From a virus (lineage: Duplodnaviria > Caudoviricetes): a stretch of DNA of 64,000 nucleotides. The notes below the pieces were generated by a model. That model had not been told where the DNA came from and ran no database searches. It was given only the letters and a program-made list of their open reading frames with translations. The translations under genes and the position numbers were made by a program. The DNA lies in IMG/VR virus record IMGVR_UViG_3300036982_000217, positions 6,205 to 70,204 of that record; one strand, written 5' to 3'. Position 1 is the stretch's first letter. Every line of letters starts with the position of its first letter. Shown one piece after another: positions 17,633 to 49,338 of the stretch.

Positions 17633-17968
17633 ATGAATACTCCAAAGAAAAAATCTAAAAAAGGAACAGCAGCTATTAACTATGGTTATGAAGCTGGTAA
17701 ACTTGCTGGAGGTGCGGCAGGTACTACAGCTGGTAAAAAAATGAAAACTGGTGGAATGACTAATGCTAATAAAAGTGTATCTGCATTAAAAGTAGCTGGC
17801 TCTAAAGGTGTAATCTCTGGAGAGAATGCTAAAGTTTCTGCATCTAAAGTAGCTAAAGGACGTTCAGGTGGAACTTCTAAAGCTCCTAAAACTGCAGTTC
17901 CTAAAGCTATGTATGGTACTTCTATGAGACCAGGCATGATGAAAAAAGGTGGTGCTAAAAAGAAATAA
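17633..17968 (+). CDS. small basic Lys/Ala/Gly-rich protein
   Basis: Low complexity, with MKTGG and MMKKGG motifs. Confidence 0.65.
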   Translation: MNTPKKKSKKGTAAINYGYEAGKLAGGAAGTTAGKKMKTGGMTNANKSVSALKVAGSKGVISGENAKVSASKVAKGRSGGTSKAPKTAVPKAMYGTSMRPGMMKKGGAKKK

Positions 17969-17970
17969 TA

Positions 17971-18171
17971 ATGGCACTAAAGAAATCTACTACTAAAAGT
18001 CGCGTTAACCAGGCTGGTGTTTACACTAAGCCTGGCATGCGCAAATCTTTATTTGAAAGAATTAAAGCTGGTACTAAAGGTGGAGATCCAGGAGAATGGT
18101 CTGCAAGAAAAGCACAACTTTTAGCTAAAGAATATAAAGCAAAAGGTGGTGGCTATAAAACTAAAAAGTAA
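17971..18171 (+). CDS. small basic protein (DUF5872-like)
   Basis: YTKPGMRK...KGGDPGEWSARKAQLLAKEYKAKGGGY motif, recognised from memory. Confidence 0.65.
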   Translation: MALKKSTTKSRVNQAGVYTKPGMRKSLFERIKAGTKGGDPGEWSARKAQLLAKEYKAKGGGYKTKK

Positions 18172-18437
18172 TGGCTAAAGATCCTCAGCAAAGTTTAAGA
18201 GATTGGTCAGCACAAAAGTGGATGACTTCTGGAACTTATGCTAATAAGAAAAAAGGATCAGCTAAAGAGGTAAAGTCAAAAGGTAAGAAAAGATATTTAC
18301 CTGAAGCAGCATGGGGTTCTTTATCTGCAGGAGAAAAAGCTGCAACAAATAAAGCTAAAGCTAAAGGTAATAGTAAAGGAAAACAATTTGTTAAACAGCC
18401 CAAGGGTATAGCCCAAAAGGCATCAAGATTTAGATAG
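18171..18437 (+). CDS. small basic protein
   Basis: QQSLRDWSAQKW...RYLPEAAW...KQFVKQPK. Translationally coupled to the previous gene. Confidence 0.65.
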   Translation: MAKDPQQSLRDWSAQKWMTSGTYANKKKGSAKEVKSKGKKRYLPEAAWGSLSAGEKAATNKAKAKGNSKGKQFVKQPKGIAQKASRFR

Positions 18438-18439
18438 TT

Positions 18440-18685
18440 ATGGCAATTAAAAGAACAACAACTAAAAAATCCACACCAGCTAAGAAAGCAAATTCTTCAG
18501 TTGGTATTTCCATTTTTGGTGGTAACAAAGCAGAAATGAGAAAATGGGAAGTTGAATCTGCTATGTCTACATTACAAAGAGCGTCTGAGATTCAGAAGAA
18601 TGCTAAGTTAATGGCAGATGTAAAGAAGATGGCTGCTGAAAAAGCTAAAGAATTTAACAGCATAGCAGCTGGTAAAAAAATATAA
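18440..18685 (+). CDS. small basic protein
   Basis: 81 aa, with a KWEVESAMSTLQRASEI helix. Confidence 0.6.
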   Translation: MAIKRTTTKKSTPAKKANSSVGISIFGGNKAEMRKWEVESAMSTLQRASEIQKNAKLMADVKKMAAEKAKEFNSIAAGKKI

Positions 18686-18686
18686 A

Positions 18687-19115
18687 ATGGAAAAATTAAA
18701 CTTTGATCAGATGTTGCAAGCAGCATGTGATGCAATGAAAAAAGAATCTTTAATGGCGCAACTTTACCAAGCAATTACTGGTAAAGAAATGCTTGTTATG
18801 CAGGTTATCTTTAAGGGTGACATGAAGTATCCATCTTATATTGTTATGGTAGATGACAGAGGTAATACAATGGTTACTGGAATGCCTTCTCCATATCTTG
18901 ATGACTTAGTAATTGACATGCCACTAGAGATGACAGAAGCAGAAGCTGAGGCAGCTTTAGTTGCAGCAGGTTATGAAGATAACTGGAGTACTCTTACTTT
19001 AAGAGCTCCATTGTATTCAGTAGTATACCCACCACTATACATCTTTGCTGTAAAGCATAAAGGATTTATTGCTGTGGATTCTACTGATAGCACAAATGTA
19101 TTTCCAATTTCATAA
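18687..19115 (+). CDS. acidic Met-rich hypothetical protein
   Basis: 142 aa with net negative charge, unlike its neighbours. Confidence 0.6.
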   Translation: MEKLNFDQMLQAACDAMKKESLMAQLYQAITGKEMLVMQVIFKGDMKYPSYIVMVDDRGNTMVTGMPSPYLDDLVIDMPLEMTEAEAEAALVAAGYEDNWSTLTLRAPLYSVVYPPLYIFAVKHKGFIAVDSTDSTNVFPIS

Positions 19116-19117
19116 AA

Positions 19118-19384
19118 ATGAAAAAGACAGCTAAAGTAAAGGTTACAGCTGGTGGAGAAAAACATGTGGTCTATAAAAAGACTACAAAAAAAGGTGAAGG
19201 TAAGATTGGAAACATAATGGTTAATCATCCTACCAAAGATAAAGGGCAGTGGGATACTATTGATCTTACTAAAATAGGTAGAGCCAAAACAGTTGCGCAG
19301 GGTGTAGCTGCTACAAAGAAATGGCATAAAGATAACCCTGATTATAAGTATAAAGGCAAGAAAAAGAGTAATGGCAAAAAGTAG
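19118..19384 (+). CDS. small basic protein
   Basis: 88 aa, Lys-rich. Confidence 0.6.
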   Translation: MKKTAKVKVTAGGEKHVVYKKTTKKGEGKIGNIMVNHPTKDKGQWDTIDLTKIGRAKTVAQGVAATKKWHKDNPDYKYKGKKKSNGKK

Positions 19385-19772
19385 AGCACAACAAGCAGCA
19401 ATAGCTATCTCAATGAAGAAAGCTGGTAAGATACCACAAGGTTATCATAGAATGCCTGATGGTTCTATTATGAGAGACTCAGACCATAAAATGAAAAAAG
19501 GTGGTTCTACTCCTGCTTGGCAAAGATCAGAAGGTAAGAATCCAGAAGGTGGTCTTAATGCTAAAGGTGTGGCTAGTTATAGAGCAGCTAATCCAGGAAG
19601 TAAACTTCAGACAGCTGTAACTACTAAACCATCAAAACTAAAACCTGGAAGTAAGGATGCTAAAAGACGTAAAAGTTTTTGTGCTAGAATGTCTGGAATG
19701 CCAGGACCAATGAAAGATGAAAAAGGAAGACCAACTAGAAAAGCTCTTTCTTTAAGAAAGTGGAATTGTTAA
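19371..19772 (+). CDS. small basic protein (DUF6321-like)
   Basis: PAWQRSEGKNPEGGLNAKG...RRKSFCARMSGM...RKALSLRKWNC motif, recognised from memory. Confidence 0.65.
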   Translation: MAKSRAQQAAIAISMKKAGKIPQGYHRMPDGSIMRDSDHKMKKGGSTPAWQRSEGKNPEGGLNAKGVASYRAANPGSKLQTAVTTKPSKLKPGSKDAKRRKSFCARMSGMPGPMKDEKGRPTRKALSLRKWNC

Positions 19773-19788
19773 TTTATTATATATAATT

Positions 19789-20130
19789 ATGAAAACTATG
19801 AAGACTTGTAAAATGGGTTGCGGCAAAATGAAAGCTGGTGGCCCTGTTAAGAAAGTAAAGAAGATGGCTAAAGGTGGAGCTACAGACTATAACTATGGTA
19901 TTCCATTAAATGGCTTACCTATGCGCCCTACTAATGGTAACACAGATATTTCTAAAAATCAGATGGGAACTAATCCTACTATGAAGAAAGGTGGTACTAT
20001 GAAAAAAATGCAAAAAGGTGGTGTACTTAAACCTGTACCTTCTAGCAATACTGGTTTATCTAAGTTACCTACTGCTGTAAGAAATAAAATGGGTTATCAG
20101 AAAAAAGGTGGTTCTGTTAAAAAGAAGTAA
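19789..20130 (+). CDS. small basic protein with five xxKGG/AGG motifs
   Basis: MKAGG, MAKGG, MKKGG, MQKGG, QKKGG. Confidence 0.65.
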   Translation: MKTMKTCKMGCGKMKAGGPVKKVKKMAKGGATDYNYGIPLNGLPMRPTNGNTDISKNQMGTNPTMKKGGTMKKMQKGGVLKPVPSSNTGLSKLPTAVRNKMGYQKKGGSVKKK

Positions 20131-20175
20131 CCATGTGTAAGTGTAGAGAAAAAGGTAAAGTTAAAAAGTAAAGTC

Positions 20176-20703
20176 ATGGCAACTAAAAAGACTACCGCAA
20201 AGTTTGGATCTACTGTAAAAGTACAGAGAGGATATCCTGGTAAGATTAGATCTGCTAAAGATCAAGGTTATACTCCTATTGGTAAAAGAGAACCTGCAAG
20301 AACTAAGTTTGATGATGGAGGAGCTTTAAGTAGTAAAGCACCAAAAGAAGCAAAGATGAAATTTTACTCTCCAGATGGTAATTACAAAACAGTAGTTAAA
20401 AAGAATTATGGTGAGCCTGAAAGAGCTAAGGAAACAAGAACACTTAAAGGAGTTTTGAGAGGTGTTAATAAACCTACAATGAATGTAGAGCCTCAAGAAT
20501 CAAAACCTGAAGTATTTAGTGCTAAAAAAGGTGGTTGGATACAGGGAGCTATTAAAAAACCTGGGGCATTAAGAGCATCTCTTGGTGTTAAAAAAGGTGA
20601 AAAAATTCCTAAAGCTAAATTAGCAGCTGCTGCAAAAAAGGGTGGTAAACTTGGACAAAGAGCAAGACTTGCAATTACATTAAGTAAAATGCGTAAGAAA
20701 TAA
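20176..20703 (+). CDS. basic modular protein
   Basis: FDDGG and AKKGG motifs. C-terminal WIQGAIKKPGALRASLGVKKGEKIP module. Confidence 0.65.
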   Translation: MATKKTTAKFGSTVKVQRGYPGKIRSAKDQGYTPIGKREPARTKFDDGGALSSKAPKEAKMKFYSPDGNYKTVVKKNYGEPERAKETRTLKGVLRGVNKPTMNVEPQESKPEVFSAKKGGWIQGAIKKPGALRASLGVKKGEKIPKAKLAAAAKKGGKLGQRARLAITLSKMRKK

Positions 20704-20708
20704 TTATA

Positions 20709-21410: not shown

Positions 21411-21416
21411 TAAAAA

Positions 21417-22046: not shown

Positions 22047-22061
22047 TTTTCTAACTACTTT

Positions 22062-22094
22062 TTTGCTATTATAAAATTTTTTACTATATTATAG
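22062..22094 (+). promoter_or_regulatory. putative promoter TTTG-N19-TATATTATAG
   Basis: Identical boxes and spacing to 640-672. Confidence 0.65.
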
Positions 22095-22125
22095 TATATT
22101 GTTTGTTTAATTAAATTATAAAAAA

Positions 22126-23793: not shown

Positions 23794-23818
23794 TAGTTAA
23801 AGGTTAATAAATAAATAT

Positions 23819-23853
23819 GGGGAGAGAGAGTTTATACTCCTCTCCCTTTTTAT
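23819..23853 (+). terminator. Rho-independent terminator
   Basis: GGGGAGAG(A)GAG-TTTATA-CTC-CTCTCCCC stem followed by a T tract. Confidence 0.85.
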
Positions 23854-30543: not shown

Positions 30544-31589
30544 TGGATTTTAATTATACTCTTAGATATAGAACCTTTGATCAATTGTTAGAAGATGTAA
30601 CAGTTGATTTAAACACCTTTGCTCTAGAAAATATGATAGAGCCCCAGCAATTAATTAAGCTGGTTAAAAAATTAAATTATGATCTTGGTCTAAGAGTAAA
30701 TCAAACTAAAGAAGTTATTCTAGATGTATGTCATGGTAAGGTAAAACTACCAGATGATTTTTATGTATTTAACTTTGCATTGGTGTGTGGTAACTATGTT
30801 CAACAAGTTGGATATGGACCAATGTCTGCAGGAACCAATATACAAGAAGTAAGATATCAAGAAACTCCATCTACTACAGATGTGTGTGCACCACCAACAG
30901 TTAACTGCAGAACATGTAATTCTAATCCATGTAACAAAACTGCAGCATGTGATCTTAATTTCCCTATAGTAGATCCAATACCTACAGAATATGATCCAAA
31001 TAATCCCTATGGTGATACTTGTATTGCACCTAGAGTTTTTATGAACTGTAAAGGTGAAAAATGGGAACTAGTTCAAGTGATGAATAATTCCGGAGCTACT
31101 AGAGTTTACACAGATTTATTACCATTAAGAATGAAGGCTAGTCAAGAAATAGAATGTGACTGTCCAAATCTTTATTTTAATACTGCAAACCAAGGTTGGA
31201 TAAAAGGCGGCTTTCTATTTACAACATTTGAAACTGGTAAGGTATATTTAAATTATCAAGGTGAAATGGTAAATGATCAAGGATACTTAATGGTTCCAGA
31301 TCATGATCTAATAAATGAATATTATGAATATGCTTTAAAATCTAGAATACTTGAAAACCTATATCTTAATGGTGAGGATGTAGCACAAAGAATGCAGTTA
31401 ATTGAACAAAGATTAAGAGCAGCTAGAAATCAAGCATTAAGTGTTGTCAATACACCAAACTTTAAAGAACTTGAGAAGATGTGGTGGACAAATAGAAAAG
31501 CAATGTATGGTAAGTATTACTATATGTTTGAAAGTTATTCTCCTAATGCAGCATACTATAGAAACTTAACCGGCAATAGAATAATATAA
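30543..31589 (+). CDS. ring / tail tubular protein (P22 gp4-like class)
   Basis: KLPDDF...LFTTFETGKVYLNY...GYLMVPD pattern. Directly upstream of the muzzle. Confidence 0.7.
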   Translation: MDFNYTLRYRTFDQLLEDVTVDLNTFALENMIEPQQLIKLVKKLNYDLGLRVNQTKEVILDVCHGKVKLPDDFYVFNFALVCGNYVQQVGYGPMSAGTNIQEVRYQETPSTTDVCAPPTVNCRTCNSNPCNKTAACDLNFPIVDPIPTEYDPNNPYGDTCIAPRVFMNCKGEKWELVQVMNNSGATRVYTDLLPLRMKASQEIECDCPNLYFNTANQGWIKGGFLFTTFETGKVYLNYQGEMVNDQGYLMVPDHDLINEYYEYALKSRILENLYLNGEDVAQRMQLIEQRLRAARNQALSVVNTPNFKELEKMWWTNRKAMYGKYYYMFESYSPNAAYYRNLTGNRII

Positions 31590-34500
31590 TGGCTAATAAA
31601 GGTCTTCAAAATACTACTCAGAATATTACAAATAGTTTCTCCAAAGGTCTAAATAAAGATACTGACCCATCATTTGTAACATCTGGACTATGGACACATG
31701 CAAGAAACATGGTCAATAATACTGATGAGGGTAACCTAGGTACTTTATCTAATGAAGACTCAAACTATCTCTGCGGAACAAGTGGAGAGACTATGCAGGG
31801 TGATAAAGCTATCATTGGTATTATACATTTATATGCAGACAAGTGGATTATATTCACTGTAGCAACAGTAAATGGCAAACCATTAAATTCTGAGATTGGT
31901 TTATATGAAGAAGAATCTTGTTTATATAGACCAATTGTTTCTGCACCATGTTTAAATTTTAGTCCATACAATTTAATTACTGGAGCTTCTAGACAAAAAG
32001 GAGATTGTAAGTGGGAAGTCTATTGGGCTGATGGTAGAAATCCAGATAGATACTTAAACATTGGAGATCCAAGAACATGGCCAGATTCATCTTTTCAATG
32101 GGGTGGTTCTAACCAAGCTACAGCAGGTGCAAATTATAATACATATATTTCTTCTACAGGAACTATGCTTTGGCCAATTACTGCATGGGAACAAAAATGT
32201 CCACCTGAAGATTGTAAAATATGTACAGATTTAAACTTTTTAGATTGTGACAAAATAAGACTAGCATCATTAGTACAAACACCATGTGTTCAACTTTCAA
32301 TTGCACCTGGTACAGGTACATTAGAAAATGGAACTTACTTTGCTGTTATAGCATATTCTATTAAGGGTCAAAATGTAACTAATTATTTTTCTCCAAGTAA
32401 TCTTCAACCAATATATAATCCTAATGATATTTCACAAGGATCATTACTATTAACATTAGATTTAGATACTGAAAACTTTGAGCAATTTGAATTAGTAATA
32501 GTTAGATCAATTAATGAAAATGTTCAAGCAAAACAGATTGGTTATTATTCTACTTCTGAAACATCAATCTTATTAGATGATATACCACAGACATTAATAA
32601 CTGTACCAACATCAGCTATACCATTATTAAATCCGGTATATGAGAAATCAGATCAGATAGTTAATGTTGGACAGTACTTACTTAGAATTGCTCCTACATC
32701 TAAATTTGATTTTAATTATCAGCCACTTGCTAACTTAATAAATACTAAATGGGTATCAGTTGAATATCCTGAAGACTATTACATTAATGGTGGATCTAAA
32801 GTAGGGTATCTTAGAGATGAAGTATATGCTTTCTTTATTAGATGGGTATACAATACTGGAGATAAATCTGCATCTTATCATATTCCTGGAAGACCAGAAG
32901 AAAATTATCCAACACCAAATCCAGATAATGTTCCTGCAAATACAAAAGATGCTGATTCATATACAGATAAGAATAGTTTTGTAGATAACACATTATTATT
33001 TGAAACTGTAAATACAGCTTGGCAGACAGATACATACTTTCCTAACTATCCAGTATTACCTGATGGAGGAGTTGTATTAGCTAAAGGTAAAATGGGATAC
33101 TGGCAATCTACAGAAATATATCCAGATAACCAACCTAACATATGGAATTCAAGTTCACAGTGTTGGACAGCTACTAAAGATCCAAGATATGATCTTTGTG
33201 CCAAACCTATTAGACATCACAAGTTTCCAGATAATGCATTAACACCTGATACATATCACTTCAGAGTAGAAAATGCTAATGCTTCTGATGGTAAAAAGTT
33301 TATTAGAATAATGGGTGTAGAGTTTAATAATATAATCTACCCAAAAGATAATGACGGTAATGACATTCCTAATATAGTTGGATATGAAATACTAAGGGGT
33401 TCAAGAGAAGGTAATCTTAGTATAGTTGCTAAAGGGATGATTAATAACTTTAGGACTTATCCTATACAAGGTCAATCAAAAGGTAATAGAACGGGATTGT
33501 ATGCAAACTATCCATTTAACTGTTCATTACCATTAGATAATACTGCAAATATTGGAGATCATGATTATTACTATAATGATCCTTTTATTAAAACAACCAC
33601 TATAGATAAAGATGGAAATGAGACATTTGTAAATCAAGGTATACCAAAAAACCTTCTTACATTTACATCTCCAGATACTAGCTTTAGAAATCCTTTTATA
33701 AACCAAACTGAATTAAAAATTTATGGAAGTTTAGAAGGTAACTCAGTGCATTCTTTTGTAATACCAGATAAACATCCTGAAAATCAGTTGATGAGTAATG
33801 CTGCGGTTTATATTGCAATTATAGCTGGTCTTGGAAATGCTTTATTAAACTTATTGGGTAAGAAACAGATATCATCACCAGCTCTTCCAGATTTTCAAGT
33901 ACCATATCAAAAATATGATTATTGGAATATTGTAGGTGGTAATGGTAATAACTTATCACCACCAAATCCACCACCAGGTGATTTAGATCTTTTTACAGTA
34001 AATGCAGCTGCAAGTAATGCGTTTAACTTTTATACACAACTTAATAATTATTTTAGTAGTGCAGCGCAACAAATTTCTGGTGCAATAACCGGACCTGGTA
34101 ACCCAGCAACTTTAACACTTGAAGAAATTTTTGAAACAACAGCACAGTCATATGCAAATATTGGCCTCTATCCACCAACAACACTTATAACAGATTATAA
34201 TACATCAACTATTTTAAATAATTTAGGGCTTGGTGTTTTTGCAACAAGTGCAATAAATATTGGCGTACAGTTACCATATTATTTCTCAGAAGGATTTAAT
34301 ACAACACTAAGAGTTATACAAGCATTCTTACCATTTAGACAATATGCATTACAATCATTAGCACATGGATTCTATGCAAGATTTGTTGCGCCTAATACTA
34401 ATTTCTTAAAAAGATTTAAAATTGAAAACGGATTTTATCTTAGTGATAGAAATCAAGAGGTTCCAGATTATTTAAATGGATTTGGTAATTTTCAAAGATT

Positions 34501-37069
34501 TACAATAAATAATCTTTCTAGACCTAAGACAGTCTTTATTAGAACTTCTGCCCCAAATACAACATACACAGCACCTACCATTGCTCCAACAATAGGACCG
34601 CAGTTAGTTGGTACATATGTTGGATCAACACAGCAAATTGGTTTTCAAGAAGATAACTCATTAATTAATCTTGGTAAAGCAACTGATGTTCCAAGCTTTG
34701 ATATGAGTTTTAAAAATGAATCATTATTTAAACAATTCTTAGGAAATATAGCAAGTCATTATGTTGGATTAAAATATAATGTGCAAAATCAATATGGTAG
34801 AATTGATAGTATAAAACAAGTTGTTGCAACAACATGTGAACAAAGATTTGATCCTAATAATATAATAACTCCTACCAATCCTAATGGAGATGTTAATGAA
34901 GTTTTTACATCTGCAAATTGTAATGGCGTACAAGTAATACATAAAGTATTACTACCAACACAAATCATATTTGGGGGAGATACTTATATAAATAGATTTA
35001 CAGAAAAGAATACAATGTTATTCTTCTACAACTGGTTATATAATTTACCTAATGGAACTATCTGGAACTATGCATTATATAATAATATTCCTACTGCAAG
35101 ATATTGGATGAATACTGCACCATACAGTAAGGATGAAAATCCAATTGCTGCTGGTGGTAATATTGCAACAACAATTGCAGGTATAATATCTTTACTAACT
35201 CCTCAACCAACATTTGGTACTGGTCCAATGCCAAAAGGATATTATAATTTAGATAATGATAACTATGACAGACAAAATGATACGGAAGGAAACTATCCAG
35301 GATTTTTATCTGTTAAGGATTCATACATGTATTTAGCTAATTCTGGTGTAAGAGATTTCTTTGTAGAGAGTAATGTGCTTGTAGACTTTAGATCACAAGG
35401 AACTTTACAATCACAACAACCATACATGCCATATCAATATACAGATTTAAGACAGTTATTTGATATGAATCCAGAAGTAATTACTAAGGGTAACTTCTAT
35501 AACTATGATTATTCATTAAGTGTTACTAAGTTTTTTACACAGTATCTTTCTGCCGGATCAACACAAGGTGCAAATTATGATCCTCAAGTTGCAGAATTAT
35601 GTTTTACATATTATCCAAATAGATCATTATACTCATTGTATCAAGATGATCAATCCTATGATAATAACTGGTTAATCTATTTACCATTAAATTATGTGCA
35701 GTTTAATGATAGAATTACTACGGTAAAACCTGTTGGTATGACGGGTATGATATTTACATTTCCAACTACAGGACCTTTATTCTATCAAGGTATTGATACA
35801 TTACAAACCTTATCTGGTAAAAAAGTAACTATTGGAGATGGTGGTTTATTTAGTAATCCCCCACAGTCTGCAGTAAATGCTGATGCACCATTTGAATATG
35901 GTTCATCTCAAAATGCAAGATCAGTAATATACTCACCAGCTGGATTATATTATGCATCAATGAATCAAGGTAAACTTTTTGCATATGGTGATGGTATAAA
36001 AGAAATTTCACAAAATGGATTGAAGTGGTGGTTTTCTTTATTTTTACCATATAAGCTAACAGAAGATTTTCCAGATTATCCATATCAAGATAATCCAGTA
36101 GCTGGTATTGGTGTTCAAGCAGGTTATGATACAAGATCATCTATTTTATATTTTACTAAAAAAGATTATCAGTTAAGAAAAGATATAGGTAAAGTATCTT
36201 ATAATCCAGAAACAAATAAGTTTAATTATCTTGGAGTAAATTATCCATTAGGACATCCAAATGTTTTTGTTGATGCATCATGGACTATAAGTTATGATCC
36301 AAAACTACAAGTATTTATTAGCTATCATGATTGGCATCCAGATCTTATGTTCTCTTCTAAAGAAACTGTATTTACAATAAAAGGAAATACAATTTGGAAA
36401 CATAATAATGTGTGTGGTGATTTTTGTAATTTTTATGGTGAACAATATCCTTTTGAAATAGAGTATCCAATAAATACAGGATCTGCTCCAAGTATTGTAA
36501 GATCAATAGAATATACATTAGAGTGTTATAGATATTCACAATTTAACTGTGTAGATCAATTTCATGTTCTTGATGCAAACTTTAGTCAAGCAGTTATATC
36601 TAACACAGAACAAGTATCTGGATATTTAAATCTAAATATATTTCCAAAAAATAATATTACACTTTCATTGCAATATCCTAAACTAAATCAATCTAACTTA
36701 TCTTCATTTGATATATTATTCTCAAAAGAAGAAAATAAGTATAGGTTTAATCAGTACTGGGATATTACAAGAGACAGAGGAGAATTTCCAATTGGATCAG
36801 ATTATCCTCCAACAGGACCTCTTGTTCCTGGAACTACACAACTTCTTGGTAATTATTCTGAACAATTTATTTGGAATACAGAACCAAATGGTTATATTAA
36901 AACTTTGAATAACGCAAACTTAAATTATGCTAAGTTAGATACTCAAAGAAAAAAGTTTAGGCATTACTTAAATTATTTATTTTTATCTAAACTTGCTACA
37001 GAACAAGAAAGAGATATCAACTTTATATTAAAGGTTGTAAATAGTAAAAATGAAATGTCATTAAGATAA
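31589..37069 (+). CDS. tail stabilisation / muzzle protein (P22 gp10-like class)
   Basis: N-terminal KGLNKDTDP...HARN...GTLSNE and C-terminal WTISY...FISYHDWHPD beta-propeller patterns. 1826 aa. Confidence 0.8.
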   Translation: MANKGLQNTTQNITNSFSKGLNKDTDPSFVTSGLWTHARNMVNNTDEGNLGTLSNEDSNYLCGTSGETMQGDKAIIGIIHLYADKWIIFTVATVNGKPLNSEIGLYEEESCLYRPIVSAPCLNFSPYNLITGASRQKGDCKWEVYWADGRNPDRYLNIGDPRTWPDSSFQWGGSNQATAGANYNTYISSTGTMLWPITAWEQKCPPEDCKICTDLNFLDCDKIRLASLVQTPCVQLSIAPGTGTLENGTYFAVIAYSIKGQNVTNYFSPSNLQPIYNPNDISQGSLLLTLDLDTENFEQFELVIVRSINENVQAKQIGYYSTSETSILLDDIPQTLITVPTSAIPLLNPVYEKSDQIVNVGQYLLRIAPTSKFDFNYQPLANLINTKWVSVEYPEDYYINGGSKVGYLRDEVYAFFIRWVYNTGDKSASYHIPGRPEENYPTPNPDNVPANTKDADSYTDKNSFVDNTLLFETVNTAWQTDTYFPNYPVLPDGGVVLAKGKMGYWQSTEIYPDNQPNIWNSSSQCWTATKDPRYDLCAKPIRHHKFPDNALTPDTYHFRVENANASDGKKFIRIMGVEFNNIIYPKDNDGNDIPNIVGYEILRGSREGNLSIVAKGMINNFRTYPIQGQSKGNRTGLYANYPFNCSLPLDNTANIGDHDYYYNDPFIKTTTIDKDGNETFVNQGIPKNLLTFTSPDTSFRNPFINQTELKIYGSLEGNSVHSFVIPDKHPENQLMSNAAVYIAIIAGLGNALLNLLGKKQISSPALPDFQVPYQKYDYWNIVGGNGNNLSPPNPPPGDLDLFTVNAAASNAFNFYTQLNNYFSSAAQQISGAITGPGNPATLTLEEIFETTAQSYANIGLYPPTTLITDYNTSTILNNLGLGVFATSAINIGVQLPYYFSEGFNTTLRVIQAFLPFRQYALQSLAHGFYARFVAPNTNFLKRFKIENGFYLSDRNQEVPDYLNGFGNFQRFTINNLSRPKTVFIRTSAPNTTYTAPTIAPTIGPQLVGTYVGSTQQIGFQEDNSLINLGKATDVPSFDMSFKNESLFKQFLGNIASHYVGLKYNVQNQYGRIDSIKQVVATTCEQRFDPNNIITPTNPNGDVNEVFTSANCNGVQVIHKVLLPTQIIFGGDTYINRFTEKNTMLFFYNWLYNLPNGTIWNYALYNNIPTARYWMNTAPYSKDENPIAAGGNIATTIAGIISLLTPQPTFGTGPMPKGYYNLDNDNYDRQNDTEGNYPGFLSVKDSYMYLANSGVRDFFVESNVLVDFRSQGTLQSQQPYMPYQYTDLRQLFDMNPEVITKGNFYNYDYSLSVTKFFTQYLSAGSTQGANYDPQVAELCFTYYPNRSLYSLYQDDQSYDNNWLIYLPLNYVQFNDRITTVKPVGMTGMIFTFPTTGPLFYQGIDTLQTLSGKKVTIGDGGLFSNPPQSAVNADAPFEYGSSQNARSVIYSPAGLYYASMNQGKLFAYGDGIKEISQNGLKWWFSLFLPYKLTEDFPDYPYQDNPVAGIGVQAGYDTRSSILYFTKKDYQLRKDIGKVSYNPETNKFNYLGVNYPLGHPNVFVDASWTISYDPKLQVFISYHDWHPDLMFSSKETVFTIKGNTIWKHNNVCGDFCNFYGEQYPFEIEYPINTGSAPSIVRSIEYTLECYRYSQFNCVDQFHVLDANFSQAVISNTEQVSGYLNLNIFPKNNITLSLQYPKLNQSNLSSFDILFSKEENKYRFNQYWDITRDRGEFPIGSDYPPTGPLVPGTTQLLGNYSEQFIWNTEPNGYIKTLNNANLNYAKLDTQRKKFRHYLNYLFLSKLATEQERDINFILKVVNSKNEMSLR

Positions 37070-40000
37070 TGAAGAAGTCTTTTAAGAAATATGAAAAAGC
37101 TGGATTACCTGGTGGTCCAAATGAATTAAAAAGATTTACTCAAGGCTTTATAATGTCTGAGAGAGGACAATGGGATTACCCAGGTCTTCCTACAGCAGTA
37201 CCAACACCTACTGGAAGAATAACTATGAAAGGAGTAGAAGATGATCTAGTAGGTATAGATAATCTGGGTAACATGCAATACATGACTCCTGGTAATGAAT
37301 ATCAGTTTGAGGGAGATATGGTATATGAAATACCACAAGCTAAGAAAGGTGGCAGTAAAAAATATCCTAAAAAATATTCTAGGAGTTTAATGGCTAGGAA
37401 TGTATTATTTACAAAAAACCCGTTATTTAAAAAATCAAAATCTGTAAAGAATAAAATCTTTGATCCTAACTCTCCATACTTTGCAGTAGGAGGTGAGATA
37501 GTTTCATTTGATTTTGATGACACACTTAGCACAGAACCTGGTTTAGAAATGGCACAATCAATGCCAAATGAAAAGTATATTATATCTGCTAGAGCTGAAG
37601 TAACACCAGATATGATAGAGAGAGCAAGAGCTGCGGGAATATCTGAAGACAAAATATTTGCAACAGGATCAGATAAAGCTAAGATAGCTAAAATAAAAGA
37701 GCTTGGAATAAATAAGCATATTGACAATAAACAATCTGTTGTTAGTAAATTAGGGAATATAGGACAAATATTTCAAGAAGGTGGAGAATTACTAGAAGCA
37801 AGTTATGGACATTCTGTAGGTAATCTTATAAGAAAACAACCAGGTGGGGAAACTGATGCCATGAATGCAATGATGAAAGCAAGACTTGCATATGCAAATG
37901 AGTTTGGTAATCCTGCTGCACAAAGAATGATAGTTGCTCCAGATAATCCATATGATTTTGGAAATGGTATGACAGGTACACATTATATGGCAAGTATGGA
38001 TAACTATGCTGTACCACAAATTCAAGATGAAAATGGGCAATTAGTTCTTGGTGATTATGGCCCAGAATCTAATGAAGCAATAAGATTTGATAGACCAGAA
38101 GATGCAGAATACTTTGCAAAAAATTATAAAAATATATCTCCTGGGTTTATTGAACTAGAACTTGATGATGATCAAATAGAAGAGTACAAAAAAGGCGGAT
38201 ACATAGTAGAAGATATTTCTGTACCAAGTTTAACAAAAGCAAAAAATGGTAAACAAACAACAGGAATAGATCCGGCCTTCCAAGCAAAAGCACAACAAGT
38301 TGCTAATAATCTTGGAGTGTCATTAGATGATTTAATTGGTATTATGAATCATGAATCTGGATTAAATCCAGGAGCAGTTAATCCTTACACAAATGCAACA
38401 GGCTTAATTCAGTTTATGCCAAACACTGCAAGAAATATGGGCACTAGTGTAGAGGCTTTAAAAAACATGTCTGCCATTGATCAGTTAGATTATGTAGAAA
38501 GATTTTATAAACCAATAGCAGGTAAGGCAAAAGACATTGGTGATTTATACATGTTTACATTTCTCCCAGCTGCAATTGGTAAGCCAGATAATTTTGTAAT
38601 AGGTGCTAGTGGAAGTACCAATAAAATATTTGGAATAAATCAAAATGCTTTATACAAACAAAATAAAACTTTTGATGCAGATAAAAAAGGCTACTATACA
38701 GTAGGAGATGTTAAAAAAAGAATATCTAACTTTTCTGGTAGACCTCTTGCAGGATCTTTAGATCAATCAATACCTGGATTTGAATCAAGTATGACAAGAA
38801 CACCTGGTGAAAAAACAGTTGTAAAAACAACAATCATCAAAGACATGCAAAATGATGATTGGAAACCAGGAAAAGAAGAAGAACAAGTAGATCCAAGAAT
38901 TGAACAATTAAAAGCTTTTACTAAAATAATTGAGCCCAGTCTTCAGAACATAAATACTATTTATTCTGCAGCAATGCAACAAAAAAGATTTGGTGGTAAT
39001 ACAAGAATGTTTCAAGATGGGGGTATGTTAATAGATGCTTCTGATGAAGATATAAATAATTATACCAATAATGGGTACATTGTAGAAGAAGTAGATGATC
39101 TCTTAAATAAACCTGGATATGGTGCTGTTGGTGTTTCTGGTTCATCACCAGTTCCAGAATATAAACAGCCATCTGATGTTACATGGTATGGGTCACCAAG
39201 ACAAACGGTCTCTGCACCAGAAGAAGTTATTTATAGAAGTCCTGTGACAGGAAGAATACAGAGTGGACAATATGATCCAAATGCTAATCAAGAACAACTT
39301 GCTGATGCTGCAACAAATATTAGATATGCTGATGTTGTACAAGGAAGAGCTGAATCAACAACACCCACAGAAGAAATTAAACTATCTGATAAAGCTATTA
39401 AATCAGGAGACTATCTTAAAAGTTTAAAATCTGTAAAACCAATTAAAGGAATAGCAAGACCACAGGGAGAATTTTATACTAAAGAAGAGTATGAAAAATT
39501 TGATAAAGATAAATTAGCTAAGTCTGGATATTATCCTGTACAACTAAAAGATGGAAACTATGAGCTTCTTAAAAAAGAAGACATAGCAGATATGATTATA
39601 GAAAGAGGAATTACTCCACAGCAATTAAGTACAAATTATAAAATTGGAGATAGTAAATCTATTACCAAAGACTTTAAACCTGTATATGACTATGCTCAGC
39701 AATTGCAATCTAATAGAGTAGGTCCTATGATTGATAAATTAATTTATTCTGGAAAATCTGTAGACCAAGCAATAAAAGAATTAGTAGCAAAAGGTGAAGG
39801 TAATTATGAAGGCATAAAACAAAAATATGGTGAATATGCTAATATTATAAAGAAAGATGCTGATAAAATATATGCTGAAAGAATTGAAGTTAATAAGAAA
39901 AAAAAACAAACTGAAGAACAAAGATTAGAAGATGATATATTAATTCAAAAATATCTTAATCAAGATACAAAAGGTTTATCAGAGTCTCAAAGACAAATGT

Positions 40001-42210
40001 TTTTAAATCTTGCATTATCACAAAAAGAAACGATTGATAGATTAAATTCAGAAATTGACCAAGCACAAAGAGAATCTGCAGCAGGTTTTGGTAGTGGTAC
40101 AAGAGATGCTACAGCAACACAAGCATATCAATCAAGCAATCCATATTCAGAAGCAGCTGCAACAAGACAAAGAGCAGAACAAGAAAAAGCAAATACTGCA
40201 TATGCAGCAGATGTTGCAAAATATGTAATAACAGATCCAAAACTTACTGAAGAAGAAAGAAGAAATATTTTATCAGATCCTAATAAGTTTAATGAAGCAG
40301 CAAAAGCCTATAATGAGTTTCAAAATAAAGAATTAGAAAAACAGTTTGAAACTGATCAAATATTAGCTGGAAGATATAAACCTCAGTATCAATCTGGTGT
40401 AGCATCTATGATATATCCAGAATGGTTAGCTATGGGTCCTGGAGGCGGTGCTGCAGGAAAAGCTATTACATCTGGATTAGATTTTTTAGGAACAACTTTT
40501 GCTAAATCTATTCCTGGATTAGCAAGTATACCGGGAGCAACAATAGGTAATTTATTAGGAGCAGGATTTGCTGCAGATGCTTTAGTAAATAGACTTCCAC
40601 AGATTCCTGGACAGTTACAACGTGGAGAATATGCAGAAGCTGCAACTAATGCATTAACTGGTGCATTAGATGTTGGAACAGCAGGATTAATAAGCCCCCT
40701 ATATAAGGGAGTAAGAAGTACAGCATCTGAGCTTGGAAAATTTTTAGGTACAGAAGAAGGATTATTATCTAATGTATATAAGTTAAATCCTAAAGCTTTA
40801 AAAGAAAGTTCATTTCATTTTGGAAATTTAAAAAATATTCTACCTTCATCAAATCCAGAATTTATACAAAGAGGTCTTGCAACTGAAGATGCAGTAAATG
40901 ATTTATTAAATACTGGAATTGTAAGAAATAGATATTCTGCAGGATTACCTTCTAAAGGAAGATGGCGTGAAAAAGTGTATTGGGGTGAAGAGGGAGATCC
41001 AATGACATACAATCAGTTTATTATTATTGCAAAAAACAAAAAAGGATTATCAAATAGACCAGTTATTGCAGATGATATTGTAGACATACAAGTAAGGCAA
41101 TCAAATGGAACATATTCTTCTTTACCTGATTGGAAAAATAAAATAAATAAGCCCAACTGGTTAACAGGATATAAACCTATAAATACACCTGAACAACTAC
41201 CTAGTTCTAGTAATGCTCTTAATCAACAATCTAATGCATATAATTTTCGTATTCCTGAGTCAATAAAAAAATTATTTAGAATAAAATCAAAAGAACCAGT
41301 AAAGCCTGAAGACAAACTTCACGTGTATGAAGGTAATTCTTATGTGGAGGAATTACCTAAAAATTATATAACACAAAAAGACATAGATAATATATATTTT
41401 AAAGAAAAAAATCGGTTAGAATCAGATGAATATTTTAAAAGAAGATCTGCAGCGACAGGTGAGTCTCAAAGTGAAATTATGGCAGATGTAAAGAATATTT
41501 TAGATAAATGGAAAAATATAAAAATAAAATCTGGAAAAGTATCAAAAGGAGAAGCTGTTTATGATCCAGATGAAAATTTAATAACATTAAGTGATGATTT
41601 ATCAAGAGAAGATGCATTATCCTCGTTGGATCATGAAATTAAACATGCTATGTCTCAAACTGCAACAACAAATGATTATACAAATTATCCTGTAACTGAA
41701 ATTGGAAATTCATTAACAAATCTTATAATTCCTAGATTTAATAATTATTTACGTTTACCACAAGAACAACAAGTTAGAAATCTACGTTTGCTTGATTTTA
41801 TAAAAGATAAATATGGGATTCCATTTGGTCAAAATCTATCTATTGAAGATATAAATAGACTTGCTCAAGATATTAATACAAATAATAAGGGAATTTATGC
41901 TGATGAGTTTTCAAAAAAGTATATGGATGTTATAAATCAACTTAGCGGAATGAAGCAAGCTGATCAGAAATTTAGATTTGTACCTGAAAATATATTAAAA
42001 GGAAAAACTCCTTTAAAATTTGAAAGCCAAGGAAATTTGAGAAAAAATCTTGCAGGTATATTAAACAGAACATATGTTATTCCCGCTGCTGCTGTAGTAG
42101 GAGCAGGTGCATTACAACAAGAACAAGATGGTGGAATGATAATGGAACTTTCTGATAAAGAAATAGAAGAATACAAAAAAGGAGGCTGGATAGTAGAGGA
42201 CATTGATTAA
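37069..42210 (+). CDS. multidomain virion cargo protein: HAD phosphatase, lytic transglycosylase and zincin-like metallopeptidase
   Basis: DFDDT at 37510, HES at 38350 with GLIQFMP at 38401, and HEIKH at 41632. Confidence 0.8.
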   Translation: MKKSFKKYEKAGLPGGPNELKRFTQGFIMSERGQWDYPGLPTAVPTPTGRITMKGVEDDLVGIDNLGNMQYMTPGNEYQFEGDMVYEIPQAKKGGSKKYPKKYSRSLMARNVLFTKNPLFKKSKSVKNKIFDPNSPYFAVGGEIVSFDFDDTLSTEPGLEMAQSMPNEKYIISARAEVTPDMIERARAAGISEDKIFATGSDKAKIAKIKELGINKHIDNKQSVVSKLGNIGQIFQEGGELLEASYGHSVGNLIRKQPGGETDAMNAMMKARLAYANEFGNPAAQRMIVAPDNPYDFGNGMTGTHYMASMDNYAVPQIQDENGQLVLGDYGPESNEAIRFDRPEDAEYFAKNYKNISPGFIELELDDDQIEEYKKGGYIVEDISVPSLTKAKNGKQTTGIDPAFQAKAQQVANNLGVSLDDLIGIMNHESGLNPGAVNPYTNATGLIQFMPNTARNMGTSVEALKNMSAIDQLDYVERFYKPIAGKAKDIGDLYMFTFLPAAIGKPDNFVIGASGSTNKIFGINQNALYKQNKTFDADKKGYYTVGDVKKRISNFSGRPLAGSLDQSIPGFESSMTRTPGEKTVVKTTIIKDMQNDDWKPGKEEEQVDPRIEQLKAFTKIIEPSLQNINTIYSAAMQQKRFGGNTRMFQDGGMLIDASDEDINNYTNNGYIVEEVDDLLNKPGYGAVGVSGSSPVPEYKQPSDVTWYGSPRQTVSAPEEVIYRSPVTGRIQSGQYDPNANQEQLADAATNIRYADVVQGRAESTTPTEEIKLSDKAIKSGDYLKSLKSVKPIKGIARPQGEFYTKEEYEKFDKDKLAKSGYYPVQLKDGNYELLKKEDIADMIIERGITPQQLSTNYKIGDSKSITKDFKPVYDYAQQLQSNRVGPMIDKLIYSGKSVDQAIKELVAKGEGNYEGIKQKYGEYANIIKKDADKIYAERIEVNKKKKQTEEQRLEDDILIQKYLNQDTKGLSESQRQMFLNLALSQKETIDRLNSEIDQAQRESAAGFGSGTRDATATQAYQSSNPYSEAAATRQRAEQEKANTAYAADVAKYVITDPKLTEEERRNILSDPNKFNEAAKAYNEFQNKELEKQFETDQILAGRYKPQYQSGVASMIYPEWLAMGPGGGAAGKAITSGLDFLGTTFAKSIPGLASIPGATIGNLLGAGFAADALVNRLPQIPGQLQRGEYAEAATNALTGALDVGTAGLISPLYKGVRSTASELGKFLGTEEGLLSNVYKLNPKALKESSFHFGNLKNILPSSNPEFIQRGLATEDAVNDLLNTGIVRNRYSAGLPSKGRWREKVYWGEEGDPMTYNQFIIIAKNKKGLSNRPVIADDIVDIQVRQSNGTYSSLPDWKNKINKPNWLTGYKPINTPEQLPSSSNALNQQSNAYNFRIPESIKKLFRIKSKEPVKPEDKLHVYEGNSYVEELPKNYITQKDIDNIYFKEKNRLESDEYFKRRSAATGESQSEIMADVKNILDKWKNIKIKSGKVSKGEAVYDPDENLITLSDDLSREDALSSLDHEIKHAMSQTATTNDYTNYPVTEIGNSLTNLIIPRFNNYLRLPQEQQVRNLRLLDFIKDKYGIPFGQNLSIEDINRLAQDINTNNKGIYADEFSKKYMDVINQLSGMKQADQKFRFVPENILKGKTPLKFESQGNLRKNLAGILNRTYVIPAAAVVGAGALQQEQDGGMIMELSDKEIEEYKKGGWIVEDID

Positions 42211-46811: not shown

Positions 46812-46812
46812 G

Positions 46813-49338
46813 ATGGATAAGAAATTAAAAAAACTTCCTAGAGCAAGAACTGGATATCAAATTCAAGGTTCTTTAGCTAATGATGTACCTGCTTTTGGTG
46901 GTGCAGATTATAATGCATACATTGGTAAACCAAGCTTAAGAGTTAGAAACTCTATGGGAGCTGTTCCTAGAGAAGAAGCTAATATAGAAGCAGAAGGTGG
47001 AGAAACATTAGTGGGAGATATAGATGGTTCTACATTTCCATCATTCTATAATATAAAAGGTCCAAGGCATTCTTCTGGCGGAGTACCAATGAATCTACCA
47101 GATGATACATTTATTTTTAGTGACACACAGTCAATGAAAATAACTGATCCTGAGATCTTAAAGATGTTTGGTAAAACACCAAAGAAGGGAGGATATACTC
47201 CAGCAGAGTTATCTAAAACTTATGACATAAACAAATACAGAAAACTTTTGCAAGATCCTGAGTCTAACAAGATGGAAAAGAAGACTGCAGAGATGATGAT
47301 TAAAAACTATGTCATGAAACTTGGTGCATTAGCACTTGCACAAGAATCTAAAAAAGGTTTTCCTCAAGGCATACCTGTTATTGCTAAACCATATATGGAA
47401 GCTAATGGAATTAAAGAAGAAGATTTAATGCCAGAAGGTGCAGGTCAAGAAGAACAAATGATGCCACAAGAAGAAATGGCACAAGAAGAAATGGCACAAG
47501 AGCAAATGCAAGAACAACCAATGCCACAGCAAATGCCATCTGGAGAACCAATAGCACAACCATCTATGGAAGAACAAATGATGAGTGCACAACAAATGTC
47601 TCCGGAAGAAATGCAAGAAGCACCAATGGCTATGTATGGTATGACAGTAGGTGGTTATGAAATGCCATTTGCACAATATGGAATTTCTCTTGGTGGAGGT
47701 AATCCTAATAACTATTTAGGTAGAAGAGAAAGAATGCTAGGAAGCGGTCCATTTATGGCTAGAGAAGGTATTATAATTGGCGGTACTAATATGCCATTAA
47801 TTATGCAAGATGGTGGAAGTACATATGAGTTAGATACATTTGAAGGAGGAGGACAAATTACTGAAGCAGATTTAACAAAAGATGACTTAGAAATAATTAA
47901 GAAAAAATGGAATGGTAAGAAACAAGCATATATTGACTTTATAAATACTAAAAAAGCAATAGAGGAAAATGCTGATTTTCAAAATGACTTGTTTACACAA
48001 TATCAAAAAGATATAGACAATCCAGAAAATTATACTAAAAGTCAAAGAGAAAAGTTTTTTAAATCATATTCTCCAGAATTAAAGAAACTAGACAAAACAT
48101 CTGTTATAAATCAATTATTAGCACAAGAAGAAAGAAATGCTAGGTTAGCTGCTTTTGGTTTAGATCCTACAAAGACAGAGCAAAATGCAGAAGGAGTTAC
48201 TGGAACTAATGCTGCCGCTAATAGATTAATTAAAGCAAATCCAGAAGGACTTAGGGATCTTAATTTCTCTACAGGTTATCAAGGACAAGCTGCATATATA
48301 TCTTACAGAAACTTATTAGGAACTGAAAAGTATAAACCATATGGTCAATTCCAAGTTGGTGTTGGAGATGAAACAATAGCTGGTAAGAAAGGTCAAGTAT
48401 CAGGAATAGATCAGTTTAATACAAATACTACACTAGGACAAAGACTTAATTTTGCTCCTCCTAAAAAAGTTAATAAATGTTTTTGTCCTGATCCTATTAC
48501 TGGTGTAGAAAAAGAAGTACCATTAAAAGATGGTAAGTGTGAATGTGAACAAAGTCCACAAATGCAATTTCCAGAAGTACAAGCTCCAGGAGGAACTTAC
48601 TGGCCAGAATGGACAACTCAAGATAAGTTAAATCTTGCAACTGCAATGAGAACAAGAACCGGTGTAGAATATCCTATGGCAATGACACCAAATATTCCTG
48701 AAGTTAGTTTACAAAAACAAGAGTGGCTTGCTCCTGTTCAAGCAGCACAAGCAGCAGCTGCTAAGAATTTAGATTTAATTGGAAGAACAGCAACTCCATC
48801 TACAGTAAAACAAGCTGCAGCAGCTTCACTAGAAGGTGATCTTATTGATGCAATACAACGCCCTATAGTTCAAACACAAGCTGGTAATACTGCTATAGAA
48901 AATCAAGAAAGATTAATGAACTTTCAATCTGCAATGAATGCAGATACTAATAGAGCAAATATACTTAATCAGTATATGGATAAAACTGGTGCTGCTGAAA
49001 ACTTCTATAGAGGTGAATTAAATGCAAAAGATGCATTAAAAACAGCAATGATGAATCAGGGTATTAAAAATGCTGCAGATATCTACAATATCCAAAGTGA
49101 ACAATATGCAATTGATCCTGTAACTGGAGTACAAATTTTTAAACAAGGTAAACCATTACAACCAGAAAAATCTGAAGATGCTTTAGAATATGCAATGCAA
49201 TTAAAAGCAAGTGGTCTTCCAGATGACATGCAAGAATTAGTATATAAAACTAGATATAGTAGATATGGAGGACCTGTATTACAAATGGGTGGAATGGTTT
49301 ATGGAGACACAGTTTACCCTTTTTATTACTATGAATAA
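46813..49338 (+). CDS. virion cargo protein
   Basis: N-terminal NIEAEGGET...GPRHSSGGV...FIFSD domain that I recognise from crAss-like virion proteins. Central E/Q/M-rich linker. Confidence 0.6.
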   Translation: MDKKLKKLPRARTGYQIQGSLANDVPAFGGADYNAYIGKPSLRVRNSMGAVPREEANIEAEGGETLVGDIDGSTFPSFYNIKGPRHSSGGVPMNLPDDTFIFSDTQSMKITDPEILKMFGKTPKKGGYTPAELSKTYDINKYRKLLQDPESNKMEKKTAEMMIKNYVMKLGALALAQESKKGFPQGIPVIAKPYMEANGIKEEDLMPEGAGQEEQMMPQEEMAQEEMAQEQMQEQPMPQQMPSGEPIAQPSMEEQMMSAQQMSPEEMQEAPMAMYGMTVGGYEMPFAQYGISLGGGNPNNYLGRRERMLGSGPFMAREGIIIGGTNMPLIMQDGGSTYELDTFEGGGQITEADLTKDDLEIIKKKWNGKKQAYIDFINTKKAIEENADFQNDLFTQYQKDIDNPENYTKSQREKFFKSYSPELKKLDKTSVINQLLAQEERNARLAAFGLDPTKTEQNAEGVTGTNAAANRLIKANPEGLRDLNFSTGYQGQAAYISYRNLLGTEKYKPYGQFQVGVGDETIAGKKGQVSGIDQFNTNTTLGQRLNFAPPKKVNKCFCPDPITGVEKEVPLKDGKCECEQSPQMQFPEVQAPGGTYWPEWTTQDKLNLATAMRTRTGVEYPMAMTPNIPEVSLQKQEWLAPVQAAQAAAAKNLDLIGRTATPSTVKQAAAASLEGDLIDAIQRPIVQTQAGNTAIENQERLMNFQSAMNADTNRANILNQYMDKTGAAENFYRGELNAKDALKTAMMNQGIKNAADIYNIQSEQYAIDPVTGVQIFKQGKPLQPEKSEDALEYAMQLKASGLPDDMQELVYKTRYSRYGGPVLQMGGMVYGDTVYPFYYYE

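Follow-up and report, generated by a model that had tools for sequence, protein, structure and literature searches.

A Gly-Gly motif at the module joints of small basic and cargo proteins in an aquatic crAss-like phage

The stretch of DNA described here (the window) comprises 64,000 nucleotides, bases 6205-70204 of the 70,204-base record IMGVR_UViG_3300036982_000217, from an aquatic crAss-like phage. All of its genes are on the plus strand and together they form the virion module of the phage (Table 1). Two groups of genes are of particular concern: a block of small open reading frames (ORFs), most of them coding for basic proteins, that is situated between the genes for the major capsid protein (MCP) and ring protein 3/4, and the genes for three large cargo proteins (w37069, w42270 and w46813). 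The proteins of both groups carry a short motif built around a pair of glycines, which is the subject of this report. A muzzle protein, ring proteins 1, 2 and 3/4, an HK97-fold MCP and the crAss gene order identify the locus as a Crassvirales-type virion module. The Pfam matches have E = 1.3e-22 for ring protein 2 and E = 4.8e-14 for ring protein 1, while that of ring protein 3/4 (E = 8.5e-4) is sub-threshold. The MCP is 23-28% identical to the MCPs of crAss-like phages, and among cultured phages Leptolyngbya phage Lbo-JY46 comes closest (MCP identity 27.6%). At least 600 relatives with MCPs 89-99% identical are present in IMG/VR, and five complete ones (G001 to G005, 115-123 kb), which were not used to define the motif pattern, served for comparison. 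A search for related loci with w42270 alone gave only two loci.

Table 1. Genes and features of the virion module, in window coordinates (aa, amino acids; RNAP, RNA polymerase; where a single position is given it is the gene start)
Feature	Position	Strand	Remarks
terL	8576	+	
Portal protein	10780	+	
Scaffold-like acidic protein (w13622)	13622-14869	+	
MCP	14898	+	
Conserved 341-aa protein	16595	+	
Block of nine small ORFs (basic cluster)	17633-20703	+	
Small basic protein, 111 aa	17633..17968	+	MKTGG 17741-17755; MKKGG 17939-17953, 6 residues from C-terminus
Three small basic proteins, 66, 88 and 81 aa	17971..18685	+	phrog_17747 and phrog_14910; single-module; strict motif absent
Acidic, non-basic protein inside the basic cluster, 142 aa	18687-19115	+	no family match; only in one or two relatives (L007)
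Small basic protein, 88 aa	19118..19384	+	motif absent
Small basic protein with DUF6321 domain (w19371)	19371..19772	+	MKKGG 19491-19505 directly precedes domain start
Small basic protein, 113 aa	19789..20130	+	MKAGG, MAKGG, MKKGG, MQKGG (19828-20022), strict or near-strict
Small basic protein, 175 aa	20176..20703	+	FDDGG 20308-20322; AKKGG twice
Ring protein 3/4	20709	+	
Ferritin	21417-22046	+	followed by fibre genes
Ring protein 2	29878	+	
Ring protein 1	30543	+	
Muzzle protein	31589..37069	+	PF25731, E = 5.7e-23; directly upstream of cargo genes; no motif copy
Cargo protein 1 (w37069), 1713 aa	37069..42210	+	motif copies at aa 138, 235, 373, 648, 1702; EQDGG at 1685
Insert cassette in w37069, aa 143-234	37495..37770	+	between FAVGG and FQEGG; HAD-like segment of the initial annotation
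Unit copy 1 of w37069, aa 359-383	38143..38217	+	contains YKKGG as turn after helix; hmmsearch profile A3, E = 1e-10
Unit copy 2 of w37069, aa 642-675	38992..39093	+	opened by FQDGG; hmmsearch E = 5.9e-10
Zincin-like stretch in w37069, aa 1490-1528	41536..41652	+	DUF6782, E = 2e-4, 21.2 bits vs cut-off 27, sub-threshold
Unit copy 3 of w37069, aa 1673-1712, C-terminal end	42085..42204	+	EQDGG opens, YKKGG inside; hmmsearch E = 5e-19
Cargo protein 2 (w42270), 1513 aa	42270..46811	+	YGKGG 42306-42320; FQVGG 43896-43910; FRDGG 44055-44069; YYPGG; YNPGG
Cargo protein 3 (w46813), 841 aa	46813..49338	+	N-terminal aa 1-335 conserved
Fourth large protein	49401	+	followed by giant RNAP-like proteins

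An initial annotation of the window had described a tag of the form hydrophobic-x-x-G-G, specific to the small basic and cargo proteins and common to both. The pentapeptides it listed are all present in the genes to which they were assigned, FAVGG (37480-37494) and FQEGG (37771-37785) being exact, and the pattern is indeed enriched. However, about a third of them (AKKGG, KQPGG, EQDGG, KQTGG, QKYGG, GKKGG and SRYGG) have no hydrophobic residue at position -3, counted from the first Gly, and four further instances had been missed (YGKGG, YYPGG, YNPGG and MTVGG). Copies of a strict pattern, [MFY][KQ]xGG, were counted and compared with the numbers expected from composition-preserving shuffles of each protein. 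In the window there are 6 copies in the basic cluster (0.23 expected), 6 in the three cargo proteins (0.41 expected) and 1 in the remaining 52 proteins (0.71 expected). The five complete relatives have 27 copies in the basic cluster and 32 in the cargo proteins, for expectations of 0.78 and 2.07, while their other proteins, 165,034 residues with the giant RNAP-like proteins included, have 4 where 7.24 are expected. All 23 copies in G001 are confined to eight proteins of the basic and cargo clusters, and its RNAP-like proteins of 2,377 to 3,508 residues, with equal Lys and Gly content, have none. Overall, the motif is enriched far above compositional expectation and is specific to the small basic and cargo proteins. 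The terL, portal and muzzle proteins lack it, as the initial annotation had noted, but the MCP, named with them, has one loose copy (MIKGG). A second proposed form, K/R-A-x-x-G, occurs at its compositional expectation, i.e. at chance level.

The residues around the glycines show the same division. M, F or Y stands at -3 in 22 of the 63 Gly-Gly dipeptides of the target proteins in the window, compared with 6 of 83 elsewhere (Fisher p = 3.4e-5). A position-specific profile contains information at -4 to +3 solely in the basic and cargo classes, and none around the Gly-Gly pairs of other proteins. The preferences are K at -4, M/F/Y at -3, K/Q at -2, S/A/T/E at +1 and V/T/I at +2, giving the extended consensus K-[MFY]-[KQ]-x-G-G-[SATE]-[VIT]. 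Met is the most frequent -3 residue in the basic cluster, its place being taken by Phe and Tyr in the cargo proteins, and the core is identical in acidic and basic surroundings. The richness of the target proteins in Lys and Gly, the prevalence of Met at -3 in the basic cluster and the evident shuffling of modules by recombination might point to a pattern with no function in the protein, left by composition, by a signal in the DNA (GGAGG resembling a Shine-Dalgarno sequence, or a hot-spot of recombination) or by former start codons. Such an origin is very improbable. Composition does not explain the frequency (0.2-2 copies expected in the target sets vs 6-32 observed), and the giant RNAP-like proteins have no copies at all. 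The Gly codons of the motif are GGT-GGT or GGT-GGA, not GGAGG, and occur in the same proportions as elsewhere; a Shine-Dalgarno-like or other DNA-level cause was rejected on this ground, and with codons this ordinary the signal must therefore lie at the protein level. Relic start codons were likewise discarded, as none of 304 basic-cluster proteins begins with M-x-x-G-G, and in the cargo proteins they are ruled out by the Phe and Tyr that stand where Met would be. Explanations as an artefact can essentially be dismissed. No paper describing a Gly-Gly joint motif was found in the literature searched.

The basic cluster is highly variable across 45 relatives, with the same modules separate in some and fused in others. 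Two of the window ORFs (19118-19384 and 19371-19772) overlap by 14 nucleotides (19371-19384), and in the relative L019 they are represented by one fused protein of 257 aa. The module that follows the first copy in the 17633 protein (GG-M-V/T-N-x-N-A/S-K) is found again behind a motif in 17 relatives, and the 19789 protein, which has its copies spaced at 9-12 residues, also carries QKKGG near its C-terminus. The most direct view of a joint comes from the DUF6321 domain of w19371 (PF19846, aa 55-131, E = 1.6e-24, 86.8 bits vs a cut-off of 28.5). Stand-alone DUF6321 proteins (n=17) start M-A-K-S/T-P-A-W and none contains the motif. In the 15 fused proteins, w19371 included, the junction reads [MY]-K-x-G-G-S-T-P-A-W, with the motif exactly there. 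The motif is outside the models of such module families, and arises when modules are joined.

The number of copies also follows the length of the proteins. Among the 304 basic-cluster proteins, motif density is 0.30 per 100 aa in those of 40-80 aa, 85% of which have no copy, and about 1.0 per 100 aa in those longer than 180 aa, a threefold rise. A copy occurs within the first 12 residues in 15 of the 304. Tandem copies 8-12 residues apart are present, and copies only 4-8 residues from C-termini retain the +1 to +4 consensus. Small residues dominate +1, where Pro is found in 11 of 268 copies.

Some of these modules have close counterparts in other marine phages. The genes at 17971..18685 show 72-76% DNA identity to genes of Methylophilales, Pelagibacter and Roseobacter phages, and the C-terminal module of the 20176 protein is 77.6% identical at the DNA level to gp44 of Pelagibacter phage HTVC027P. 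More widely, the genes at 17971-20703 share 72-78% DNA identity with unrelated marine phages, namely Pelagibacter HTVC027P and HTVC119P, Methylophilales MEP401, Roseobacter CRP phages and Synechococcus ACG-2014f. The window proteins resemble known marine-phage modules (DUF6321, DUF5872, phrog_17747, phrog_14910) in that w19371 is itself a DUF6321 member and its neighbours have this level of identity. Judging from these similarities, a pool of small basic protein modules appears to move between phage lineages. The HTVC027P cluster carries FKKGG, YKKGG and YKVGG, and in this phage there are 7 motif copies for 1.8 expected, four of them in the small basic cluster. A further module, absent from the window, was seen in several basic-cluster proteins of relatives (e.g. 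L014 15186-15530, L030, L062): an EF-hand-like loop, F-P-D-L-N-K-D-G-K-I/V-T-K, directly behind a motif copy and accompanied by Cys-rich segments.

Cargo protein 1 is a mosaic in which only aa 1-156, 254-394 and 1642-1713 are common with relatives. The cassette at aa 143-234 is absent from minimal relatives, where a strand-helix-strand unit (described below) directly follows the first Gly-Gly; this cassette and a second block are inserts between the P-Y-F-x-x-G-G site and the unit that adjoins it in those relatives. The initial annotation had seen a HAD domain bracketed by FAVGG and FQEGG. The bracketing is supported, since the copies that enclose the inserts stand next to each other in minimal relatives, but a HAD identity has no support from Pfam or the PDB. 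An SLT domain (aa 401-535) lies behind unit copy 1. A single-sequence AlphaFold2 (AF2) model of aa 1-720 reached a predicted local distance difference test score (pLDDT) of 33.6, and no domain borders were obtained from it. In cargo protein 3, copies lie behind the end of the conserved N-terminal part (MTVGG 47641, MQDGG 47803, FEGGG 47839), and LQMGG (49279-49293) opens the conserved C-terminal tail. This tail is aromatic, ends in P-F and is opened by a Gly-Gly site throughout the cargo-3 family, and differs from that of cargo proteins 1 and 2.

All cargo-1 and cargo-2 orthologues of the five relatives close with a conserved tail of about 30 residues, the strand-helix-strand unit. It consists of the motif, a short strand, an N-capped acidic helix (L-[TS]-x-x-E-I-x-x-Y), G-G or x-G, and a last strand, [YW]-[IV]-[IV]-E-[DE]. 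In w42270 itself the C-terminal tail is degenerate compared with the unit that closes its orthologues. The conserved tail also closes a cargo protein (674 aa) of Lbo-JY46. An AF2 model of the unit from a 19-row alignment predicts a strand (33-37), a helix (39-47), the Gly-Gly and a second strand (50-54) with pLDDT 78-85; the first Gly-Gly is placed at the strand start and the second between the helix and the last strand. A Foldseek search with this model gave no match at E <= 0.001, and a profile search of the PDB returned only chance matches (proteasome alpha C-termini, calmodulin helices). A profile built from ten tails and searched against 1.84 billion representatives matched 923 proteins with E <= 1e-3, of which 164 reach E <= 1e-10. 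The best 150 contain 2-4 copies of the unit each, and in 126 of them a copy ends within 6 residues of the C-terminus. The unit-bearing proteins that were looked up are all metagenomic entries named 'hypothetical protein'.

These 150 further cargo-like proteins (mutual identity <= 50%) contain 686 copies of [MFY]xxGG vs 111 expected. Of the 686, 189 are located where a unit starts, 190 inside, 93 just after and 214 elsewhere. About half of the cargo motif copies open a unit or form its inner turn, and in cargo protein 1 four of the eight instances given in the initial annotation belong to unit copies. In several representatives the unit has a motif copy on both sides. The unit, its predicted fold and its spread are new findings, as are the link of the motif to the small basic proteins, its scaling with length and the DUF6321 comparison.

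The borders of homologous segments provide a more general measure. In 169 cargo-type proteins, 17% of internal homology-block ends are within 10 residues of a copy, vs 8.0 +/- 0.3% of random positions, and blocks tend to begin just before a copy or to finish just after one. The position of the motif is conserved while the flanking sequence is swapped. Some modules are common to basic-cluster and cargo proteins, and the two classes are linked because modules have been exchanged between them. The proposal that the tag sits at domain or module borders is borne out. In crAss-like phages the motif marks the joints between modules in the internal proteins, those that are packaged and ejected, and its copy number scales with the number of modules.

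One of the roles first suggested for it was that of a capsid-loading signal, an address bound as a linear motif by the capsid interior, scaffold or portal, by which the proteins would enter the procapsid. Confinement to proteins expected within the virion would suit such a role, as would the multiple copies, often near termini, and the terminal unit in 126 of the 150 cargo proteins; a common binding pocket is also suggested because the same core appears in acidic and basic surroundings. Encapsulin cargo-loading peptides, which are short, terminal, contain Gly and hydrophobic residues and dock cargo inside an HK97-fold shell, offer a precedent, and a conserved terminal peptide is found here too. 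Their sequence is different, however, and the element here is mostly internal and increases with the modules, so that density follows module number instead of being constant; binding to the capsid would be putative. The fit to a simple tag is poor, most single-module basic proteins and all stand-alone DUF6321 proteins being without the motif. Indeed, it is not needed for loading each protein, since 85% of the shortest basic-cluster proteins, as well as those DUF6321 proteins, lack it. The scaffold's own C-terminal Gly-Gly is not conserved, and basic modules with the motif also occur in HTVC027P, an unrelated podovirus with a different capsid. An address function is accordingly considered quite unlikely.

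The reading we favour, in which our confidence is about evenly balanced, is that of an uncut joint, acting as hinge or turn, combined with a terminal strand-helix-strand handle. The internal proteins would be strings of small interchangeable modules with the motif at the seams, and the joints would stay uncut. The Gly-Gly pair may form a tight turn or flexible hinge, anchored by the hydrophobic residue at -3 and the beta-branched residue two positions past the glycines, so that each module could fold, unfold and refold independently during threading through the tail. The terminal unit, probably too small to be stable alone, would serve as a handle that pairs with a second copy or contributes a strand to a partner in the virion (portal, ring or capsid interior), holding the cargo proteins together and in place. 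The closing unit in 126 of 150 proteins and the shared tail in Lbo-JY46 argue for the handle. Cutting appears less compatible with the copies so close to C-termini, with the tandem spacing of 8-12 residues and with Pro at +1 in some copies, nor was a protease family seen in the scanned ORFs (see below).

Several points weigh against this reading. Uncut linkers are usually of low complexity, and some seven constrained positions look more like a recognised element, the joint being conserved from marine phages to gp45 of phage crAss001. A simple helix cap misses some copies because Pro or Gly lies upstream of many of them. The AF2 model of the unit is of moderate confidence, with 19 sequences and the unit modelled alone, and the partner of the handle is a putative one. 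The DUF6321 comparison would suit a polyprotein equally well, as a cut after the Gly-Gly would give nearly the stand-alone N-terminus. Finally, the protease search reaches only to the sensitivity of Pfam; a cryptic or host enzyme is possible.

The initial annotation had also raised the possibility that the motif is cut by a maturation protease. Polyproteins, cleaved after or within the Gly-Gly by an unrecognised phage or host protease, would then be encoded by the cargo genes and the longer basic-cluster genes, a view that we regard as possible though rather doubtful. The units would be removable targeting or spacer peptides, as is the T4 capsid-targeting sequence, and the basic proteins would be trimmed to small DNA-condensing peptides, as are adenovirus pVII and pre-mu. 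A sequence-specific signature at every seam is unlike ordinary linkers, small residues dominate +1, and stand-alone DUF6321 proteins start where a cut after the Gly-Gly would leave the fused form. Because motif copies flank the unit on both sides in several representatives, two cuts could release a peptide of about 30 residues. On the other hand, many copies lie within a predicted folded turn, and those near C-termini or in tandem would yield useless fragments.

Adenovirus protease cleaves at (M/L/I)xGG-x sites, its substrates including the basic core proteins pVII and pre-mu, and African swine fever virus (ASFV) pS273R has GG-x sites. The resemblance extends to a hydrophobic residue before the glycines, to substrates that comprise large precursors as well as small, highly basic internal proteins associated with DNA, and to sites at the borders of functional units. 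In contrast to adenain and other Ulp-type systems, M/F/Y here occupies -3 of the first Gly, one position further out than in the (M/L/I)xGG sites. No C5- or C63-type cysteine protease was found in the Pfam-scanned ORFs, and cleavage here would be putative. T4 internal proteins carry an N-terminal capsid-targeting sequence that is removed by the prohead protease gp21 at L/I-x-E, and ejection proteins of phiKZ and SPN3US are also processed. These are likewise packaged and ejected proteins with a short shared terminal peptide beside a short conserved site, but the T4 type has an N-terminal tag, an L/I-x-E site and a dedicated prohead protease, of which none was found in the scanned ORFs. The double-glycine leader/C39 system, in which an N-terminal leader of 15-30 aa ends in GG and is served by a C39 peptidase-ABC exporter, is not matched either: copies are mostly internal or C-terminal, and the scanned ORFs contain no C39 family.

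The search for an enzyme consisted of Pfam scans, with PHROGs scans in addition, of the cargo, basic-cluster and other structural proteins of the window and of 51 further ORFs of G001. Apart from short ORFs, fibre genes and giant genes, which were left out, it gave no prohead-protease, C5, C39, C48, C57, S49, S77, S78 or ClpP family, and neither the region from terL to the tail genes nor any other scanned ORF yielded a prohead protease gene. Of the candidates named by the initial annotation, the zincin at 41632 is sub-threshold (Table 1) and has no match in the cargo proteins of the five relatives, which retain the motif; a protease predicted just past the window end can be set aside, as the record stops there. 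The sole metallopeptidase-like gene (DUF2201_N plus VWA) is present in four relatives, in their replication arm, and is missing from G005. Cleavage would call for a cryptic protease domain in a conserved virion protein or for a host enzyme, with injected enzymes and basic peptides made as polyproteins and the unit as a removable targeting peptide, a combination that is unlikely. Cleavage at the joints, if it occurs, would represent the first description of a polyprotein strategy in crAss-like phages. Among the G001 (L096) ORFs at 299-13800 there is a ClpS-like N-end-rule adaptor (PF02617, E = 8.8e-15), which could matter if cargo joints were cut before an aromatic residue. In the literature searched, no paper reports cleaved crassvirus cargo and none deals with DUF6321. 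The crAss001 papers neither report nor exclude cleavage, and their list of SDS-PAGE bands has no gp45 assignment.

The best studied cargo protein is gp45 (C1) of crAss001, of which segments 214-245 were resolved in the tail barrel and 425-552 on the portal (Bayfield et al. 2023, PMC10172136); the paper mentions neither the motif nor cleavage. Its gene, like that of cargo protein 1, directly follows the muzzle gene. The protein, which is packaged and ejected, is rich in aromatic-GG sites, at 17 (FDTGG), 260 (FAEGG) and 559 (FAYGG) plus four of the A-[FY]-G-G type, and the stretch behind FAYGG bears a loose resemblance to the beginning of the unit. When these sites are set against the published ranges (PMC10172136), both resolved segments are seen to be flanked by aromatic-GG sites within 2-15 residues. 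This would favour cleavage, which, if true, would explain the gp45 pieces on both sides of the portal. In contrast to the window, a cluster of small basic proteins is missing from crAss001. The cargo proteins were compared with gp45 and gp46 of crAss001 and homology was rejected, as neither phmmer nor hhalign gave a match; searches of G000 and four relatives with PF25725 (crAss_CARG1) were negative at E <= 1, and no Pfam match falls on w46813. A separate ESM Atlas lead (0.88) connects aa 1-330 of w46813 (46813-47800) with PF25725, the portal-bound domain of crAss001 C1, without confirmation from hidden Markov models or hhalign.

Few known viruses are as abundant as the crAss-like phages, and the crAss001 structure raised the question of how several megadaltons of cargo protein are loaded and threaded out. 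To this question the window contributes a class-specific joint motif and a terminal unit of about 30 residues found in at least 923 protein clusters, which together offer a handle that can be mutated. It also links two sets of genes annotated only as hypothetical, as the basic proteins encoded near the capsid gene share a module pool with the giant cargo proteins.

Two other genes of the virion module deserve mention. The ferritin gene (PF00210, E = 4.6e-26) follows that of ring protein 3/4 and precedes the next tail gene, and its N-terminal extension is without the Gly-Gly motif. It is a variable accessory gene, since an orthologue is present in only 1 of 80 related loci. The scaffold-like protein w13622 was considered as a further carrier of the tag and rejected, as its C-terminal L-S-R-G-G is not conserved in 80 relatives, the conserved tail being N-x-F-K/R-R-F. 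This tail, in the form N-x-[MLIF]-F-[KR]-R-F, is strictly conserved across the 80 relatives and, from its conservation, is probably the capsid- or portal-binding end of the protein.

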